Source of the DNA: Pedobacter terrae
GTDB taxonomy: Bacteria > Bacteroidota > Bacteroidia > Sphingobacteriales > Sphingobacteriaceae
Length of the DNA: 64,000 bases
Direction of reading: 5' to 3'
NCBI RefSeq assembly: GCF_036946585.1
Contig: NZ_JAQIIV010000013.1
Coordinates: forward strand, 27,492 to 91,491
Shown: one piece after another, positions 41,311 to 60,899 of the stretch
Layout: each line of letters opens with the position of its first letter
How positions within the stretch are numbered: the stretch's first letter is position 1
Notes under the pieces: model-generated
The model's input: only the letters and a program-made list of their open reading frames with translations
Told to the model about the DNA's origin: nothing
The model's database searches: none
Translations under genes and position numbers: made by a program

Positions 41311-41814
41311 ATGATGGAGCCCAAACCATACCAGGAAGAAGATATTAAAGTTCCCCGCTTTGAAGAAAGTGCTGGTTTTTACACTACAGCACAGCGAAGC
41401 AAGAACATGGCTAACATTAAGGCAAAAAATAGTTTGCCCGAGCTAAAATTGCGTAAAGCACTTTGGGCAAAAAATGTTAGGTTTAGGATTCATCCTAAAA
41501 ATTTTCCGGGCAAACCCGATCTGGTGATCAATAAATACCGGCTGGCCATATTTGTTGATGGCGATTTTTGGCATGGTTACAAATGGGATGAAAAGAAATT
41601 GATTATAAAAACGAACCCGGGTTTTTGGATTCCGAAGATTGAAAGAAATATACAACGCGACAGGCAAATCAACCAGCTGCTAAACGCTAAAGGTTATACG
41701 GTAATGCGCTTTTGGGAGCATGAAGTGAACCAACAGTTAACTGCTTGTGTGAACCAGGTTTTACTTTACCTCGAAGCGGCCAAAATTGCAGCTATACCGC
41801 AGGTTGATAATTAA
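41311..41814 (+). CDS. vsr: Very-short-patch repair endonuclease
   Basis: RSKNMANIKAKNS.PE, GKPDLV, IFVDGDFWHG, FWIPKIERNIQRD, MRFWEHE. Confidence 0.92.
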   Translation: MMEPKPYQEEDIKVPRFEESAGFYTTAQRSKNMANIKAKNSLPELKLRKALWAKNVRFRIHPKNFPGKPDLVINKYRLAIFVDGDFWHGYKWDEKKLIIKTNPGFWIPKIERNIQRDRQINQLLNAKGYTVMRFWEHEVNQQLTACVNQVLLYLEAAKIAAIPQVDN

Positions 41815-42165: not shown

Positions 42166-42314
42166 CAGTGTTAAGATTTTATTGGATATTTATGTGTGCC
42201 ATGCAAGGCATTGGAGTTACCTTTCAAAGGTAAGTGACACTTTGGTGAAAAATGCCAAACAAGCATAAATATTACATTGGCTTAATTTAACTTATTTGGC
42301 TCACTTTGAAACCA

Positions 42315-44687
42315 TGAGGGGAACTCCCCGCCTGATTTAGGAGGGGCGGGGGTGGTAAAAGGATTAATTTTCTATTCCAGTTCTTTCCCTTGAAGAAACA
42401 ATTTATCAGTAATGGGGTAATTTTTTTGCACTCGCTATAATACGGTTATTGTTCCGCCAATAAATCCGTCATTCCCGCGCATGCGGGAACCTTAATGCAA
42501 ACGCTATTTTCTTTTCCCGGGCTCAGTCTTGCCTCGGTTAGCCACCGAAGGGCTTTTACTTTTTCCTTGATGAAAAAGTAACAAACCTGAGCGAAGCGAA
42601 AGCATGCCTACCATTGAAAACAACAACAAACAAGGCATAACTGAAAGGCTTGCATCGTTCCTTGTAAAAAGCTACGGAAATCTTTATTGCGGCAGCATCG
42701 AGGCTCTTACCTTTGCTTGTCCCATCGCAATCGCTTTGATCCTGCCTTGGGCTGTGGGGGTATGAAGGGGACTGCAAAGATTTCCTTGCTTTTTCCGGCG
42801 GAAATCTGCCAGGCCGGTAGCAGGGTGCAGATAGCATGGTGCTTATAGCGGGATGTTCAGAGGTAGTTTCTAATATGGCGTTGTTCTACCACCAAATCCG
42901 TCATTGCGAGAAGGCTTTTTCAGCCGACGAAGCAATCTTTAAACCCAAGGCTTGCAGCGTTTTTTATGTGATCATGTTGTTTTTATCGGTATAAAAGATT
43001 GCTGCGCAATTCCTTGTAAAAAGCTACGGAAATCTTTATTGCGGCAGCATCGAGGCTCTTACCTTTGCTTGTCCCATCGCAATCGCTTTGATCCTGCCTT
43101 GGGCTGTGGGGTTATGAGGGTAAGTGCAAAGATTTCCGTGCTTTTTCCGGCGGAAATCTGCCAGGCCGGTAGCAGGGTGCAGATAGCATGGTGCTTATAG
43201 CGGGATGTTCAGAGGTAGTTTCTAATATGGCGTTGTTCTACCACCAAATCCGTCATTGCGAGAAGGCTTTTTCAGCCGACGAAGCAATCTTTAAACCCAA
43301 GGCTTGCAGCGTTTTTTATGTGATCATGTTGTTTTTATCGGTATAAAAGATTGCTGAGAAATTCCTTGTAAAAAGCTACGGAAATCTTTATTGCGGCAGC
43401 ATCGAGGATCTTACCTTTGCTTGTCCCATCGCAATCGCTTTGATCCTGCCTTGGGCTATGGGGTAATGAGGGGGAGTGCAAAGATTTCCGTGCTTTTTCC
43501 GGCGGAAATCTGCGAGGCCGGTAGCATGGTGCAGATAGCGTGGAGCTTATAGCGGGATGTTCAGAGATAGTTTCTAATATGGCGTGGTTCTACCACCAAA
43601 TCCGTCATTGCGAGAAGGCTTTTTCAGCCGACGAAGCAATCTTTATAGCGAGGATCATTAGCGTGAAAGATTGCCAGCCTGTTGCCGGCAGGCTTCGTCG
43701 TTCCTCCTCGCAATGACGACTTTTTTTAGATAGTATGTAAATGGCAGCGAAGGATCTTTTAATTTCTGTTATTTCAAAAAAAATCCGTCTCAACCGCAGT
43801 GCCCGCCTGTGCGGACAGGCCCGCCCGTACAGGCGGGGAGAGATCTTTTAATTAGTTTATTAGCTGCAATTTTCTCCCTCAGCTTGGGCTTGCCTCGGCT
43901 ACCGATTAAAAATCGGTACAGGTCAACCGCCACCGAAGGGCTTTTACTTTTTCCTTGATGAAAAAGTAACAAAAAATCAAGGCTTGCATCATTCCTTGTA
44001 AAAAGCTACGGAAATCTTAATTGCGGCAGCATCGAGGCTCTTACCTTTGCTTGTCCCGACGCGCTCGCTTTGATCCTGCCTTGGGCTGTGGGGGTATGAA
44101 GGGGAGTGCAAAGATTTCCGTGCTTTTTCCGGCGGAAATCTGCGAGGCCGGATAGCAGGGTGCAGATAGCGTGGAGCATATAAGAGGCTAAGGCGATCGC
44201 TATAAGACGGTCGTCATCCGATGGCTATCGGATCCCGCGCATGCGGGAACCTTAATGCAAACGCTATTTTCTTTTCCCGGGCTCAGTCTTGCCTCGGTTA
44301 GCCACCGAAGGGCTTTTACTTTTTCCTTGATGAAAAAGTAACAAACCTGAGCGAAGCGAAAGCATGCCTACCATTGAAAACAACAACAAACAAAGCATAA
44401 CTGAAAGGCTTGCATCGTTCCTTGTAAAAAGCTACGGAAATCTTAATTGCGGCAGCATCGAGGCTCTTACCTTCGCTTGTCCCATCGCAATCGCTTTGAT
44501 CCTGCCTTGGGCTGTGGGGGGTATGAGGGGTAGTGCAAAGATTTCCGTGCTTTTTCCGGCGGAAATCTGCGAGGCCGGATAGCAGGGTGCAGATAGCATG
44601 GAGCATATTGCAGGCTAAGGCGATCGCTATAAGACGGTCGTCATCCGATGGCTATCGGATCCCGCGCAGGTGGGAACCTTAATGCGT
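42315..44687 (+). repeat. Left mosaic repeat array: 5 copies of a long structured element plus CGTC-type REPs
   Basis: Copies at ~42495-42840, 42946-43192, 43298-43545, 43880-44178, 44245-44605, sharing AAAAAGCTACGGAAATCTT...AAAGATTTCCGTGCTTTTTCCGGCGGAAATCTGC..AGGCCGG.AGCAGGGTGCAGATAGC; REPs CGTCATTCCCGCGCATGCGGGAA and CGTCATTGCGAG...GCAATC in between. Confidence 0.93.
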
Positions 44688-45065
44688 AGCTCAGACGTTG
44701 CGGTCGATAGTTCAGACGTTGCAGTCAGTAGTTCAGACGTTGCGGTTGACAGTTCAGACGTTGCGGTTGACAGTTCAGAGGTTGCGGTCGATAGTTCAGA
44801 CGTTGCGGTCGGTAGTTCAGAGGTTGCGGTCGGTAGTTCAGAGGTTGCGGTCGATAGTTCAGACGTTACGGTCGATAGTTCAGACGTTGCGGTCGTTAGT
44901 TCAGACGTTGCAGTCGATAGTTCAGACGTTGCGGTCGAAAGTTCAGATGTTGCGGTCGACAGTTCAGGCGTTGCAGTCGGTAGTTCAGACGTTGCGGTCG
45001 ATAGTTCAGACGTCGCGGTCGATAGTTCAGACGTTTCGGTCGACAGTTCAGACGTTGCAGATGGT
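44688..45065. repeat. 21-bp tandem repeat x18, plus 1-2 degenerate units to ~45100
   Basis: Consensus AGTTCAGACGTTGCGGTCGAT counted unit by unit; no spacers. Confidence 0.95.
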
Positions 45066-45219
45066 AGTTTAGCGGTATTAGGAGATAGTTGAGGAGATGC
45101 AATGGGCCATTTTAGCGCTAAGCACTGCCTGAGAGAGAAATAGCCACCCGTTTGGCGCTTGTTAAATGGAAATAGGGAAATAAATTAGGGATGATTTTTT
45201 TTAGGGTATTATTGGTTGG

Positions 45220-45963: not shown

Positions 45964-46196
45964 AACATGTAGTTTTAAAAAGTAAATAAATTAGATTAAT
46001 TGGCATTAAGTTAATATTATTTTCTTTACAACTAAAAGGAGTGAAGAAATTTTTTTGATAAGGGCTATTGATAATTATATGGAAGCACAATGGGCCTAAA
46101 ATTTTTATATCAAATAATTTACCAGGCTTTTACAGCTAAGTTTGATTAAATATGTTGGTTACATTAAAATTTTCTATTTTCGGAAAACACTTTACT

Positions 46197-48590
46197 ATGT
46201 CTAAAAAGCTGCTCTCGGAACGTGATATTTGCACTAAGTTTATTTCTCCTGCCATTGAAGATGCAGGTTGGAATAAACTAACTCAATACCTTGAAGAGGT
46301 TTCTTTCACTGATGGAAAGATTTATGTTAAAGGTAGACTAACAACTCGTGGAGCTAAAAAGAGAGCAGACTATATTTTATTCTATAAGCCAAATATTCCC
46401 ATTGCAATTATTGAAGCCAAGGATAACAAACATTCTATTGGTTCTGGAATGCAACAGGCACTTAATTATGCGCAGATTTTAGATATTCCTTTTGTATTCA
46501 GTTCAAATGGTGATGGCTTTCTTTTTCACGATAAAACAAATTTAACTAAAATTGAGCAACAGCTAAACCTTGATGAATTTCCATCACCCCAGATGCTTTG
46601 GGAGAAGTATAAAGATTACAAAGGAATAGTAACCGAGCAGGCTGAAAAGATTATTGAGCAGGATTACTTTTTTGATGGTTCAGGGCGGAGGCCTAGATAT
46701 TACCAACAGAATGCTGTTAACAGAACTTTAGAAGCTATTGCATCGGGCCAAAATCGTATTCTTCTGGTAATGGCTACCGGTACTGGGAAAACCTATACTG
46801 CATTTCAAATTGCCTATCGTTTATGGAAATCGAAGACTAAAAAAAGAATATTGTTTCTCGCCGACCGCAATTCATTAGTTGACCAAACAAAAAGAGGCGA
46901 CTTTAAATACTTTAAGGATAAAATGACTGTTATCCAAAAAAGACAGATTGATAAGAGCTATGAAATCTATCTAGCTATTTATCAAGGTTTGACAGGTTCG
47001 GAAGAAGAAAAAAATATATTTAAACAATTTACACCAGGCTTTTTTGATTTAATTATCATAGATGAGTGCCATCGTGGAAGTGCAAGAGAAGATAGTGCCT
47101 GGAGAGAGGTTTTAAGTTACTTTAAAGGTGCTACACAAATTGGTTTAACTGCAACGCCAAAAGAAAGCGAGACAGCAAGCAATAGTGAATATTTTGGTGA
47201 TCCAATTTATACTTACAGTTTAAAACAAGGCATTGATGATGGATTCCTCGCTCCATATAGAGTAGTAAGGATTGGATTGAATGTAGATTTGGAAGGATAC
47301 CGACCTGATTTAGGAAAAAAAGATATTGACGGTAATGAGGTAGAAGATAAGATTTACAACCGTAAAGACTTTGACCGAACAATGGTTATAGAAGAGCGCA
47401 CGGAAGTTGTGGCCTCGAAAATCACTGAATTTTTAAAAGGTTACGATCGGTTTGCAAAAACGATCGTATTCTGTCGAGATATAGATCATGCGGAACGGAT
47501 GCGTTCTGCTCTTGCCAATCAGAATAGTGATTTGATTGCCAAAAACCATAAATACATTATGCGCATTACTGGCGATAATGATGAAGGTAAAAGGGAACTA
47601 GATAATTTTATTGAACCTGAATCTGTTTACCCGGTAATTGCAACAACATCTGAATTGATGACAACTGGTGTAGATGCTAAAACTTGTAAGGTTATTGTTT
47701 TAGATGCAGAGATTGGCTCCATGACTAAGTTTAAACAAATTATAGGTCGAGGTACCAGAATAGATGAAGAACATGGTAAGCTCTATTTTACCATTATTGA
47801 TTTTAGAAACGCGACAGATAAATTTGCGGATAAAGATTTTGATGGAGACCCTATTCGCGTTAAACCTTTACCGCAAGATGCTGACCTAGGCAATATTATT
47901 AATGAAGAACAGAAAGAAGATACACCAATAATTGATGAATTAAGCGGTGAGAATTTAGATGATAAGCTTGTCCCAAAGGAATCACCAACTGTAAGAGAGC
48001 CTGCTTCTAGCTACCAAAAAGTAAAAAGAGAAAAAATTGTTGTTAATGGTGTTGATGTTTCCATTCTAGTAACCCGTGAGTTGTACTTTAATAAAGACGG
48101 AAAACTGATTACGGTTAATCTGCAAGACTATTCAAAGGAAATGTTGCAAAATAAGTTCCATAGCCTTGAAGAATTTTTAACGGTTTGGAATGCTGCTGAT
48201 AAAAAAGAAATCTTAATAAATGAACTTGCAGAACAGGGTGTGCCAGTTGAAGCCCTATTGGAAGCCGTTGATCGAAATTGTGATTTATTTGATATCATCT
48301 GCCACGTAGCTTTTGATCAACAACCTCTTACACGCAAGGAAAGAGCTAATAATGTTAAAAAGCGTAATTACTTTACTAAATATGGCGAACAGGCAAAAAA
48401 TGTGCTGAACGCATTATTAGATAAGTATGCCGATGAAGGAATCGCGAATATTGAAAGTTTGGAGGTACTTAAAGTTAATCCAGTAGCTTCCTATGGCTCA
48501 GCACTAGAAATTATAGAAAGCTTTGGAGGCAAACCTAATTACCTGAAAGCTATTAAAGAATTAGAAAATCAATTATATCAAATAGCATAA
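46197..48590 (+). CDS. hsdR: Type I restriction enzyme R subunit (EcoAI/EcoEI-like)
   Basis: AIIEAK nuclease, MATGTGKT, DECHRG, TATP, QIIGRGTR; likely ATG at 46197 (track 46152). Confidence 0.95.
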   Translation: MSKKLLSERDICTKFISPAIEDAGWNKLTQYLEEVSFTDGKIYVKGRLTTRGAKKRADYILFYKPNIPIAIIEAKDNKHSIGSGMQQALNYAQILDIPFVFSSNGDGFLFHDKTNLTKIEQQLNLDEFPSPQMLWEKYKDYKGIVTEQAEKIIEQDYFFDGSGRRPRYYQQNAVNRTLEAIASGQNRILLVMATGTGKTYTAFQIAYRLWKSKTKKRILFLADRNSLVDQTKRGDFKYFKDKMTVIQKRQIDKSYEIYLAIYQGLTGSEEEKNIFKQFTPGFFDLIIIDECHRGSAREDSAWREVLSYFKGATQIGLTATPKESETASNSEYFGDPIYTYSLKQGIDDGFLAPYRVVRIGLNVDLEGYRPDLGKKDIDGNEVEDKIYNRKDFDRTMVIEERTEVVASKITEFLKGYDRFAKTIVFCRDIDHAERMRSALANQNSDLIAKNHKYIMRITGDNDEGKRELDNFIEPESVYPVIATTSELMTTGVDAKTCKVIVLDAEIGSMTKFKQIIGRGTRIDEEHGKLYFTIIDFRNATDKFADKDFDGDPIRVKPLPQDADLGNIINEEQKEDTPIIDELSGENLDDKLVPKESPTVREPASSYQKVKREKIVVNGVDVSILVTRELYFNKDGKLITVNLQDYSKEMLQNKFHSLEEFLTVWNAADKKEILINELAEQGVPVEALLEAVDRNCDLFDIICHVAFDQQPLTRKERANNVKKRNYFTKYGEQAKNVLNALLDKYADEGIANIESLEVLKVNPVASYGSALEIIESFGGKPNYLKAIKELENQLYQIA

Positions 48591-48591
48591 A

Positions 48592-50202
48592 ATGTCATCG
48601 ATCTATTTAAACAATCTCAATCCGGCTGAAAGAACAGCTTTAATCGAAAAACTTTGGCATATCCAAAATGGTAAATGTTTCATAACAAACGAACAGATAG
48701 ATTTGCAACTACATATCTCAGATTTGGATATCGATCATGTAATACCTTCAAAATTGGATGGGAAGGATGATCCTTCAAATTTCGCGCTAACCTTTTCGAG
48801 TGCTAACCGATCAAAGCAGGCTGCAGATTTGAATTTAGCACGTATACTTCACGCATTTAGTAAAATACAAGAAAATCTCAAAAAGAAAGAAGACCGTAGT
48901 CCAAATCTAGATGATATTTTAAAGCTTCAAGGAGGAGCGACCGATAAAATAAGGTTTAAGTTATCTGACGATAAAGTAAGTTACTCATTTTCCTCACTTG
49001 GGAGGCCTGAAATAATTACACAAGATGTTTATATTGATAAGTTAAGTGGTTTAAAATATTTCTTTGCAGTTTTTCCTATTCAATATTTGCATCATGACAA
49101 TGTTATTAACCCTAGAGCAATTGGCTCAAACATTAGTAAACTGGTAGATGAATTTTATTCAGGCAATCCACAACTACATATTTCATTAGGATGGGTTGAT
49201 ATTAAAAGTGAAGAAGAATCGGAGATTAAAATATTTGATGGACAACATAAAGCTGCTGCGCAAATATTGTTAAATACTCTAAATATACCGGTAAGGGTTT
49301 TTATAAATCCAGATAGAGATAAATTAATACTTACAAATTTTAGGGCGGGTACTACCTTAAGGCAAGTTGCTTTTGATAAATCTGTTCAACGACATTTGGG
49401 TAACACGCTGTATTGGGATCGTGTAACTCGTTATCAAGAAGAATTAAAATTGGAAAAGGATAATTTCAACTTTTCTGAAAGGCAGTTGGTGGGTTACTTT
49501 AAAGGTGAATCGAGAGAATTAAAACGTTATATCTTGGATTCCGTTAGAGATGCAATAACAAGACATCCAGAAAATAAGCTTATTGAGTTTGTGGATATGG
49601 GGGGGCGAGCAAAAGAAAAACCACTTTCTTATAGTACAATTGAGAAAACATTTTATCCATTTTTTATTTATCAAGATTTATTAGATACGCCTATATCTTA
49701 CAGGCTTGATGAAGGAAAAAATCCCAGAAGCTTAGAAACTGAACAAATTGTCCGCCTAATGAGTATAATTGCAGAAGAATTATTTATTGGTAAATTTGAC
49801 CTCGAATTAGGAACTTTTAAAATAGAAAATCGAATTCAAAATGGGGAGAATTTACCTGCAGATCATGTCAGGGCATATAGAATGGTCAAGGAAGAGATTC
49901 TGCACAATTGGTTAAGGTTTATAGGGCAAATTATTCAAAATCACTTTATCTCTTTAGGTATTCCAATAGACGATAAAAAGTTGTTTCAAAATGAATTCAG
50001 CGATGTTCTATGGAAGATAATTACCAATTCAATAATTAATTTAAGTAATCTGCCCTTATGGAAAAATAATTCTCTTGCAGTTTCCGTTTTTGGTGGAAAA
50101 CAAAACTATCATTACTGGCACAGCATATTTACAACAGGTAATTCACCACAAGGTGTAAAGGTATTGCCTGAACCGATAAATTTAATGAAACTACAACAAT
50201 AA
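48592..50202 (+). CDS. HNH + ParB-like (DGQH) domain protein inserted in the hsd operon
   Basis: DIDHVIP...SNFALTFSSANRSK (HNH); INPRAI...IKIFDGQHKAAA (ParB/DGQHR-like). Confidence 0.75.
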   Translation: MSSIYLNNLNPAERTALIEKLWHIQNGKCFITNEQIDLQLHISDLDIDHVIPSKLDGKDDPSNFALTFSSANRSKQAADLNLARILHAFSKIQENLKKKEDRSPNLDDILKLQGGATDKIRFKLSDDKVSYSFSSLGRPEIITQDVYIDKLSGLKYFFAVFPIQYLHHDNVINPRAIGSNISKLVDEFYSGNPQLHISLGWVDIKSEEESEIKIFDGQHKAAAQILLNTLNIPVRVFINPDRDKLILTNFRAGTTLRQVAFDKSVQRHLGNTLYWDRVTRYQEELKLEKDNFNFSERQLVGYFKGESRELKRYILDSVRDAITRHPENKLIEFVDMGGRAKEKPLSYSTIEKTFYPFFIYQDLLDTPISYRLDEGKNPRSLETEQIVRLMSIIAEELFIGKFDLELGTFKIENRIQNGENLPADHVRAYRMVKEEILHNWLRFIGQIIQNHFISLGIPIDDKKLFQNEFSDVLWKIITNSIINLSNLPLWKNNSLAVSVFGGKQNYHYWHSIFTTGNSPQGVKVLPEPINLMKLQQ

Positions 50203-50205
50203 TAA

Positions 50206-51630
50206 ATGAGTAATATTTCAGGGGTAATAAGCAGCATCCGCCAGATTATGTGGCAAGATAACGGGCTGAATGGAGATGCACAAAGGGTTGAGCAGCTGGG
50301 CTGGATGCTTTTTCTTAAGATATTTTGTGATAAGGATAAGGAGTTACAATTATTAAATGATGATTATGTTTCACCAATTCCAGAATTATACCATTGGGAT
50401 AATTGGGCAGCAGACGACGAGGGTATTACTGGCGATGAGCTGCAGGAATTTGTAGATCGTAAATTGTTTACTGCTTTACGTAATATTGATATAAGTACAG
50501 GGAATAAGAGAGCTATATTAGTGCGCGAGGTTTTTGATGGCAACAACAATTACATGAAAAGCGGGACCAACATCCGTAAGGTGTTAAATAAGCTTAATGA
50601 AATAGATTTTAATAAAGCGAAGGATCGCCATGCATTTGGAGATATTTATGAAAGCATACTAAAAGAGTTACAAAGTGCCGGAAAAAGTGGTGAGTTTTAT
50701 ACGCCAAGAGCCATTACCCAATTTATTACCGATATAATTAATCCACAGTTAGGTGAAAAGATTCTTGACCCGGCATGTGGCACAGCGGGCTATCTAACAT
50801 GTGCCATTGAGCATTTGAATAAGCAGGCAAATAGTGTCGATGATCGTAATAAAATACAACAGAATATTATTGGCTGGGAATACAAACCTTTACCTTATTT
50901 GTTGGCTACTACAAATTTAATACTACACGATATTGAAGTACCAAACATAACTTATCGTGATAGTTTAGATCAACCGTTAAGCGAATACAAAGAAAGAGAT
51001 CGTGTAAATGTTATTTTGGCGAATCCACCTTTTGGCGGCATTGTAGCAAACAATAATGAAAATAATTTCCCTCAAAATTATCGTACAAAAGAAAGTGCCG
51101 ATTTATTTTTAATTTTAATGATACACCTGCTTAAGCATGATGGAAGAGCAGGCATTGTTTTGCCTGATGGTTCGTTAACCGGTGACGGTGTAAAGCAGCG
51201 TGTACGCCAAAAACTATTAGAAGAATGTAATCTCCATACCATTATTCGTCTGCCCAACTCTGTTTTCCAACCTTATGCTACGGTAGCTACCAATTTATTA
51301 TTTTTTGATAAAGGCACGCCAACTAAAGAGGTTTGGTATTATGAGCACCGTTTGCCCGAAGGACAAAAATCGTATAGCAAAACCAAAACCATACAAGCTA
51401 AAGAGTTCGATCCTATAAAAGCATGGTGGGATAATCGGCAAGAAAGTGAAACTGCTTGGAAAGTAGATATTCAAACTGTAATTGATCGTAATTACGATTT
51501 AGATATAAAGAACCCGACCAAAGCTAAGGAAACTCATAATTACAATAGTATGGAATTGATGGATATGTTGCAGCAGTCTTTTGAAAAAAGTAATGCTTTA
51601 CTTGCGAGTTTAAAGGAGGCTATAAATTAA
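50206..51630 (+). CDS. hsdM: Type I R-M methyltransferase (N6-adenine)
   Basis: GEFYTPRAIT, ILDPACGTAGYL, ANPPFGG, IIRLPNSVFQPY. Confidence 0.96.
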   Translation: MSNISGVISSIRQIMWQDNGLNGDAQRVEQLGWMLFLKIFCDKDKELQLLNDDYVSPIPELYHWDNWAADDEGITGDELQEFVDRKLFTALRNIDISTGNKRAILVREVFDGNNNYMKSGTNIRKVLNKLNEIDFNKAKDRHAFGDIYESILKELQSAGKSGEFYTPRAITQFITDIINPQLGEKILDPACGTAGYLTCAIEHLNKQANSVDDRNKIQQNIIGWEYKPLPYLLATTNLILHDIEVPNITYRDSLDQPLSEYKERDRVNVILANPPFGGIVANNNENNFPQNYRTKESADLFLILMIHLLKHDGRAGIVLPDGSLTGDGVKQRVRQKLLEECNLHTIIRLPNSVFQPYATVATNLLFFDKGTPTKEVWYYEHRLPEGQKSYSKTKTIQAKEFDPIKAWWDNRQESETAWKVDIQTVIDRNYDLDIKNPTKAKETHNYNSMELMDMLQQSFEKSNALLASLKEAIN

Positions 51631-60793: not shown

Positions 60794-60899
60794 CGGCAAC
60801 AGGCTGGCAATCTATCATGCTAATGATCCTTGTTATAAAGATTGCCTCGTCGGCTGAAAAAGCCTTCTCGCAATGACGATCCCTCGGATGACACAACAA

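Follow-up and report, generated by a model that had tools for sequence, protein, structure and literature searches.

The window analysed here is a 64,000-nucleotide stretch of Pedobacter terrae DNA (contig NZ_JAQIIV010000013.1 of assembly GCF_036946585.1, positions 27,492 to 91,491, forward strand), and this work concerns one of its open reading frames (ORFs), 48592..50202 on the + strand, which codes for a protein of 536 aa that we call X and lies inside a type I restriction-modification (R-M) operon. The reading we favor, and to which we give about an even chance, is that X is a self-sufficient, single-protein, nucleotide-gated DNA nuclease of the innate-immunity type, carried as optional cargo in a variable slot between hsdR and hsdM of an intact EcoAI-type operon. 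A preliminary description made from the sequence alone had noted the tight embedding of the gene and the unusual order of its domains, and had proposed a nucleotide-regulated nuclease acting either as a guard of the R-M system or on modified DNA. Its observations were confirmed by our analysis, while its interpretation is supported in part. The four genes of the operon all run in one orientation:

46152..48590, + strand: hsdR (NCBIfam NF046051, 1161 bits against a cut-off of 550; Pfam ResIII, EcoEI_R_C and HSDR_N)
48592..50202, + strand: X, 536 aa, three domains, between hsdR and hsdM
50206..51630, + strand: hsdM, type I N6-methyladenine (m6A) methyltransferase (Pfam N6_Mtase, E 4.5e-72, and HsdM_N; PADLOC MTase_I, E 1.7e-188)
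51630..53531, + strand: hsdS, specificity subunit with two target recognition domains (Pfam Methylase_S in two stretches; PADLOC Specificity_I)

Domain architecture of X

AlphaFold2 lays X out as an HNH domain, a long linker helix, an alpha/beta domain at residues ~113-262 and an all-alpha region at 263-536 (full-length model: pLDDT 79, pTM 0.52):

48592..48831, + strand: residues 1-80, HNH (beta-beta-alpha-Me) domain of the Cas9/IscB/group II intron maturase type (HNH_4, PDB sequence matches, Foldseek)
48832..48927, + strand: residues 81-112, long linker helix (AlphaFold2 secondary structure)
48928..49377, + strand: residues 113-262, predicted ParB/sulfiredoxin (Srx) fold, putative nucleoside triphosphate (NTP)-binding switch (Foldseek; TIGR03187, E 7e-4; invariant columns)
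49378..50202, + strand: residues 263-536 and stop, all-alpha domain of 274 residues and of no known fold (AlphaFold2)

The N-terminus of X is recognized by Pfam HNH_4 (PF13395) over residues 29-76, with 23.4 bits against a cut-off of 22 (E 6.1e-5), and it also matches Cas9 HNH models and structures in NCBIfam, PADLOC and the PDB; PADLOC 2.0.0 returned partial Cas9-HNH matches alone for the protein. The HNH family PF01844 is matched by 25 of 27 diverse members of the X family, a profile of the family finds the HNH of a group II intron maturase in the PDB (E 8.9e-11) together with many Cas9 HNH domains, and Foldseek superposes the N-terminus on the HNH domain of GeoCas9 with a root-mean-square deviation of 2.2. 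The catalytic residues D48-H49, N63 and N72 are present in X and kept in 97/99 aligned family members. The single cysteine that had drawn attention in this domain is C29, and the other zinc-ligand positions are occupied by T32, F68 and A71. The family consensus at positions 29, 32, 68 and 71 is CCHC, the residues of a zinc site. Of the 77 more distant members 73 keep the site whole, and the entire 21-member Bacteroidota clade to which X belongs has C-[T/S]-F-A in its place; the aligned sequences show this loss to be older than the embedding in the hsd operon. X lacks the structural zinc site and agrees with HNH proteins in profile and catalytic residues. The CCHC site is common in HNH proteins, though not universal, and the Cas9 HNH likewise does without it. 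The linker helix that follows is the least conserved part of the protein.

The middle domain is assigned to the ParB/Srx fold at the level of predicted structure. Foldseek places the model next to Noc (7ol9), PadC (6ryk), Srx (1xw4) and ParB (7bnk) with probabilities of 0.99-1.0 and TM scores of up to 0.65 on the target, the query being a predicted model. Invariant in this domain are NPR (173-175), Q194 and DGQHK (216-220), the last identical in 99/99 aligned members, which bears out the ParB-like core reported earlier. We take NPR and DGQHK to map to the nucleotide-binding motifs of ParB, an NP-x-R-like motif and the box II position, and on these motifs nucleotide binding or hydrolysis by the domain is putative. 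The CTPase clamps ParB, Noc and PadC are the best structural matches for residues ~113-262, but X differs from them in having neither a helix-turn-helix (HTH) or parS-binding domain nor a ParA partner, and in being fused to a nuclease.

The C-terminal helical domain had been described as a long helical C-terminus, and the AlphaFold2 models agree. Modelled alone with 38 sequences it reached a pLDDT of 92.3 and a pTM of 0.90, and its invariant residues include E296, P344, R379, H425 and R430. No fold relative was found for it in the PDB (best E 0.96, TM at most 0.22) or in BFVD (best E 2.9), and Pfam reported no family besides HNH for X or for the 27 members, the C-terminal half included. The preliminary description left room for a full-length match to a characterized system to overturn it; searches with Foldseek, PADLOC and profiles gave none, and X has no characterized full-length match in Pfam, NCBIfam, PADLOC, the PDB (by sequence, profile or fold) or the literature. 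The literature offers generic remarks on fusions of the ParB fold with nucleases: one paper mentions ParB-superfamily domains that are joined to nucleases and associated with R-M loci (PMC3632139), and a domain census mentions 'novel fusions' of the ParB-CTPase fold with HNH (bioRxiv 10.1101/2025.10.10.680097), but we found no paper that describes or tests the X family.

The closest parallels in design are GmrSD, BrxU, SspE and DndI, in which a DUF262 ParB-like NTPase is joined to a DUF1524 His-Me nuclease. Like X, these proteins unite in one polypeptide a nucleotide-binding module of the ParB/Srx fold, with a DGQ-x-[RK] signature, and a His-Me-finger nuclease, and they too occur as single-gene accessories in or beside R-M, BREX or phosphorothioate systems. 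The order of the two modules differs, as the preliminary description had remarked: domain matches place the HNH of X, of the Pfam HNH/HNH_4 and Cas9/group II intron type, at the N-terminus with the ParB fold behind it, whereas GmrSD and SspE have the reverse order and the nuclease of GmrSD, BrxU and SspE is a C-terminal DUF1524. The ParB-fold part of X is moreover without a DUF262/GmrSD_N signal (PF03235, motif DGQQR) in any of the 27 members, hhalign against a GmrSD_N protein gave a probability of 0.4%, and X carries the 274-residue helical domain for which no fold relative was found. A permuted GmrSD was rejected on the missing PF03235 signal and the hhalign result. Reversed order, another nuclease family, no DUF262 signal and an extra helical domain together argue that X is an independent assembly and not a permuted member of the GmrSD group.

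A second set of relatives to consider are the DndB/DGQHR proteins (TIGR03187, PF14072), which share the ParB/Srx fold and carry a nearly identical signature, DGQHR against DGQHK in X. The TIGR03187 match covers residues 164-242 and is sub-threshold (E 7e-4, 19.4 bits against a cut-off of 58.85), so that X falls below the family cut-off. In Pfam, none of the 27 diverse members matched DndB (PF14072, at E <= 0.1), ParBc or GmrSD_N. There are no dnd genes near X, and X has an HNH that DndB lacks.

The X family and its genomic contexts

More than 2510 homologues of X were found (E <= 1e-3, in a collection clustered at 90%), named in the database 'HNH endonuclease domain-containing protein' or 'hypothetical' alone, and in a 50%-representative library full-length relatives with the same ~540-aa architecture reach down to ~23-30% identity. 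With one genome scanned per species, proteins 50-94% identical to X occur in no fewer than 560 bacterial and archaeal species, which span Bacteroidota, Pseudomonadota, Chloroflexota, Planctomycetota, Actinomycetota, Bacillota, Acidobacteriota and several archaeal phyla; the closest homologue among the matches listed is from a Pedobacter genome (94%). Inside Bacteroidota the gene is rare: it was present in 1 of 300 other species genomes (~0.3%), as a single copy per genome in two matching genomes, and in 0/2 same-genus (Pedobacter) genomes sampled. This distribution is the patchy pattern of accessory defence genes. Where synonymous divergence (dS) could be measured, the ratio of nonsynonymous to synonymous divergence (dN/dS) was 0.02-0.04, and X remains 94% identical at the amino acid level to its Pedobacter relative in locus L007 at a dS of ~1.6. 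Conservation extends to all three domains, and these values show very strong purifying selection. The number of homologues and the dN/dS together rule against X being a chance ORF. As a side observation, two loci (L073 and L076) in metagenome-assembled genomes labelled Halobacteria and Methanomicrobiales carry near-identical X genes (branch lengths 0 and 0.004) with the same neighbours, which reflects either a very recent transfer or a problem of binning or labelling.

The order hsdR-X-hsdM-hsdS was seen in three homologues looked up by identity and in 9 of 80 species loci, these 9 being the closest relatives of X. In a maximum-likelihood tree the 12 embedded genes, that of the window and 11 relatives, form one clade of Bacteroidota and Chlorobiota in which 12/12 sampled members are embedded (SH-aLRT 99; one change, with 0/500 shuffles as low). 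On this tree a single entry of X into an EcoAI-type operon accounts for the embedded genes, X having been carried along by such operons in Bacteroidota and Chlorobiota thereafter.

Outside this clade the surroundings vary. Clustering of all flanking ORFs from the 80 loci gave no shared neighbour gene besides the type I genes of the one clade, and a conserved partner across the family was rejected on that ground. Among 28 immediate same-strand neighbours scanned against Pfam, 9, in 7 loci, are R-M-like or defence-like, including an N6_N4 methylase, Eco57I-type methylases of 1057-1657 aa, HsdM, ResIII/SNF2 helicases, a PLD-helicase and a kinase-helicase, and some X genes lie directly 3' of type IIG-, type III- or type I-like methyltransferases or helicases. 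About 13 of the 28 are plain housekeeping genes, such as those for valyl-tRNA synthetase, a class II aminoacyl-tRNA synthetase, PurH, PurC, aconitase, both propionyl-CoA carboxylase subunits and a Nuo antiporter-like subunit; one is a serine recombinase, and the remaining few had no match or an uninformative one (ATP-cone domain). No dnd or ssp families were reported among these 28 neighbours or the flanking ORFs of the window. The lack of a conserved neighbour and the existence of solitary copies indicate that X works without a fixed partner. DNA homology between close X copies at different sites stops 0-17 nt from the ends of the ORF, and no cassette ends, attC-like sites, repeats or RNA partner were seen around closely related solitary copies.

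One group of loci in Pseudomonadota has a neighbourhood of its own. In L040, L042, L051 and L034 (7001-8600 and flanks) X overlaps the end of a gene for an Eco57I-type methyltransferase of 1657-1908 aa, which in three of the four is preceded by an ORF of 663-674 aa. In L040 and L042 X is followed by an ORF of 1153-1169 aa (protein kinase and SF1 helicase in L040) and then two more shared ORFs; L051 has an SNF2 helicase downstream of X instead of the 1153-1169-aa ORF. These loci share a multi-gene block that may be a BREX-like or another large system hosting X as well.

The host operon and the hsdR-hsdM junction

The spacing of 1 bp after hsdR and 3 bp before hsdM, on which the preliminary description had relied, was read directly at both junctions. 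The hsdR stop TAA (48588-48590) is followed by one A and the ATG of X at 48592, and X ends in CAA CAA TAA (the last codon at 50200-50202), a second TAA separating it from the hsdM ATG at 50206; the start of hsdS overlaps the stop of hsdM. X is probably co-transcribed with the R-M operon; a search for RNA runs that contain the locus returned none. By its NF046051 equivalog score HsdR belongs to the EcoAI family (type IB), with HsdM and HsdS adjacent, and its translation keeps the PD-(D/E)xK residues (D73, E88, K90), Walker A (GTGKT) and DECH intact, although its true start may be M16. The type I system of the window thus looks intact. With these motifs and the HsdM and HsdS matches in place, X is not a substitute for a broken HsdR nuclease, and this candidate role was rejected on the intact nuclease and helicase motifs.

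The junction that holds X is variable in related operons. The window HsdR was used to search 300 Bacteroidota genomes and the 29 best loci were read; none of the 29 has X, operons with a 60-71% identical HsdR among them. In the 24 close EcoAI-type operons without X (junctions L088-L111), hsdR abuts hsdM in 15 (~6-106 nt), and in 9 there is an insert of ~0.65-1.5 kb. In L091 this insert codes for a GmrSD_N (DUF262) protein with the DGQQR motif (E 1.7e-31), which fills in that sister operon the slot held by X here. Other inserts are RhuM (L094), DUF3644 (L106), a four-helix-bundle '23S IVP' protein (L089) and an IS200-like transposase (L092), and three are unassigned proteins of 222-372 aa (L103 and L105, and L107, which was extracted but lay outside the Pfam scan). 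Among operons that do carry X, three (L004, L012 and L015) have additional genes between X and hsdM. On a tree of HsdR, operons with and without X are interleaved, with 6 changes by parsimony of which at least 4 are forced by supported branches, and the HsdR of L012, which has X, is sister with a support of 100 to that of L091, with its GmrSD-type gene. The interleaving, together with junctions that are empty or filled with other cargo, argues that X is dispensable cargo of these operons. In the slot, its place can be taken by a known effector of the type IV class.

The claim that embedding in a type I operon defines the function of X as a guard of the PrrC/RloC kind is not supported in that form. 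Embedding is a property of one clade, most members are solitary or lie beside unrelated genes, and the sister EcoAI-type operons are empty or carry other cargo.

Several further features of the locus were recorded. HsdS of the window has 633 aa against 430-460 aa in most relatives, the difference being a C-terminal extension of ~200 aa (residues ~430-633) after the two target recognition domains that has no Pfam match; the long form also occurs in the Pedobacter relative L007 (632 aa). Directly downstream of hsdS (window 53650-54937) lies an ORF of 92 aa followed 2 nt later by a PIN_8 protein (PF18476, E 4.5e-61), a pair that may be a two-gene toxin-antitoxin-like or defence module and that had no PADLOC match. 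The whole R-M island (46.1-56.9 kb) has a low G+C content of 0.32-0.36 and lies between two arrays of related direct repeats, at window 42300-45200 and 57000-59250, whose units of ~350-500 nt have a G+C content of 0.45-0.49 and no long ORFs; a 21-nt tandem array lies at 44603-45163, and an Rfam search of the window gave no match. A Vsr-type very-short-patch repair endonuclease (PF03852, E 2.2e-27) is encoded at window 41311-41814, 4 kb upstream of the island, with no 5-methylcytosine methyltransferase identified adjoining it, and a DDE transposase gene (Tnp_DNA_bind and DDE_Tnp_1) at 59379-60857 lies just past the downstream repeat array.

Weighing the possible roles of X

In the mechanism we propose, the ParB/Srx-fold domain with its NPR and DGQHK motifs would bind a nucleoside triphosphate and act as a conformational or dimerization (oligomeric) switch, the 274-residue helical domain would recognize a target or trigger, which could be some property of the DNA, for instance base modification, or a cue of infection, and the switch would license the N-terminal Cas9-type HNH (D48-H49-N63-N72) to nick or cut invading DNA. 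In the operon, X would provide a second layer, directed at DNA beyond the reach of the type I enzyme. A lone nuclease with neither an immunity gene nor a methylase at its side has to leave self DNA uncut, and the activity of X must therefore be conditional on a non-self feature or an infection signal. The CTP switch and clamps of ParB provide one analogy for such gating. The NTP-regulated enzymes GmrSD, BrxU and SspE provide another (PMC4619093; PMC13251355; PMC12839542), and in the light of the modelled architecture the nucleotide-regulated nuclease first suggested for X is a plausible function.

Several observations weigh against the conditional nuclease that we propose. The assignment of the ParB fold rests on a predicted structure and a sub-threshold match to a hidden Markov model, X has K where DGQHR has R, and both nucleotide binding and nuclease activity of the family are inferred from folds and motifs. 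About half of the scanned neighbours are housekeeping and not defence genes, and these contexts do not show an enrichment in defence islands. A tblastn search with X of 72,556 plasmids and 50,697 phage genomes gave no match, which leaves the evident horizontal spread of the family without a vehicle in those collections. Finally, the embedded genes are monophyletic (12/12), so that within this clade X may be functionally tied to the type I enzyme.

Such a tie is central to the guard hypothesis: in the embedded clade at the least, HsdR/HsdM would keep X dormant and set it free once a phage anti-restriction protein disables the R-M complex, as for PrrC and RloC. The compact order hsdR-X-hsdM-hsdS with junctions of 1 and 3 nt, its presence in every member of a well-supported clade (12/12, SH-aLRT 99) after a single change, and the identity of X between the window and L007 (94%), above that of HsdR (83%) and HsdM (89%), all fit this hypothesis. 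Nevertheless we regard it as unlikely, and entertain it for the embedded clade alone. PrrC and RloC resemble X as accessory genes inside a type I hsd operon, a likeness of location only: they pair an ABC-ATPase with an anticodon RNase, X has the design of an HNH DNase, there is no relation in sequence or fold, and neither an ABC-type ATPase nor an anticodon nuclease was detected in X by Pfam, NCBIfam or PADLOC. Most family members are unlinked to type I genes, 68 of the 80 species loci having no type I operon of this kind beside them, so the dependence on a type I system that characterizes PrrC and RloC does not extend to the family, and outside the embedded clade X works without any such genes. 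Within the operons, the supported gains and losses on the HsdR tree (at least 4) and the X-less operons with 60-71% identical HsdR speak against an obligate tie, and the embedded clade has no distinguishing change at invariant sites, the loss of its zinc site predating the embedding. Somewhat less improbable, though still on the doubtful side, is a strict type IV enzyme, that is, a modification-dependent nuclease, which would be a sub-case of the conditional nuclease. A nuclease that stands alone, with no methyltransferase to accompany it, has to leave self DNA intact whether unmodified or host-modified, X swaps position with a GmrSD_N gene in sister operons, and its pair of fold classes, ParB fold and His-Me finger, is that of GmrSD, BrxU and SspE. 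Against this, none of the known readers of modified bases (SRA, PUA, YTH-like, wHTH-SBD, DUF262) was detected in X, its helical domain has no fold relative, X and GmrSD show no sequence relation, and the direct coupling to genes for m6A methyltransferases that is seen in several contexts would be hazardous were m6A the target.

Two further explanations deny X a primary role in defence. As a selfish, homing-like mobile gene, X would nick a target with its HNH and be copied in, any defence role being incidental. The single-gene insertions in housekeeping operons with gaps of 8-60 nt, such as that in L044 between the two propionyl-CoA carboxylase subunit genes, are what this would produce, its HNH is of the subtype found in group II intron maturases and in IscB/Cas9, and homology between related copies ends at the ORF. 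However, a common target gene or site is absent, there are no conserved flanks, repeats or RNA partner, X is missing from the phage and plasmid collections in which homing endonucleases abound, it occurs in only ~0.3% of species with one copy per genome in the two matching genomes, and all three domains are under strong purifying selection, all of which makes homing very improbable. Least credible of all is a regulatory role like that of DndB, with X adjusting the methylation or restriction carried out by neighbouring R-M genes and not attacking invaders. It draws on the weak DGQHR-domain similarity, on the frequent adjoining of X to methyltransferases and on the report of DndB as an ATP-dependent repressor of dnd genes (PMC10853773), but the HNH catalytic site of X is intact and conserved, X has no HTH domain and stays below the DGQHR/DndB cut-off, and its solitary copies have nothing to regulate.

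The conditional, nucleotide-gated nuclease therefore remains our preferred reading of X. The design itself, a ParB-fold NTP switch with a His-Me nuclease, is known, while the X family is widespread and uncharacterized; what is new here is that the embedded genes go back to one origin, that the zinc site was lost in a particular clade and that X interchanges in the slot with GmrSD-type and other accessory genes. Taken further, and more tentatively than the reading itself, the X family may be an unrecognized class of single-protein, nucleotide-gated immune nuclease, distributed over bacteria and archaea and assembled apart from GmrSD and SspE, with the extremely conserved helical domain as a new sensor of DNA modification, a phage protein or a nucleotide-pool signal, and with the hsdR-hsdM junction as a dedicated exchange slot for second-layer effectors (X, GmrSD-type, RhuM, DUF3644). 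X is extremely conserved between domains of life, its helical domain is predicted with confidence yet is a fold orphan, and its HNH is of the Cas9 type, three features that make it a good target for structural and mechanistic work. If X is an autonomous defence nuclease, it represents a widespread single-gene system missed by current defence-finder models, and it would show that a ParB-fold NTP switch and a His-Me nuclease were combined on more than one occasion. The junction between hsdR and hsdM in type IB operons, for its part, looks like a swap-slot for accessory effectors, and mining this slot would be a practical route to further candidates.

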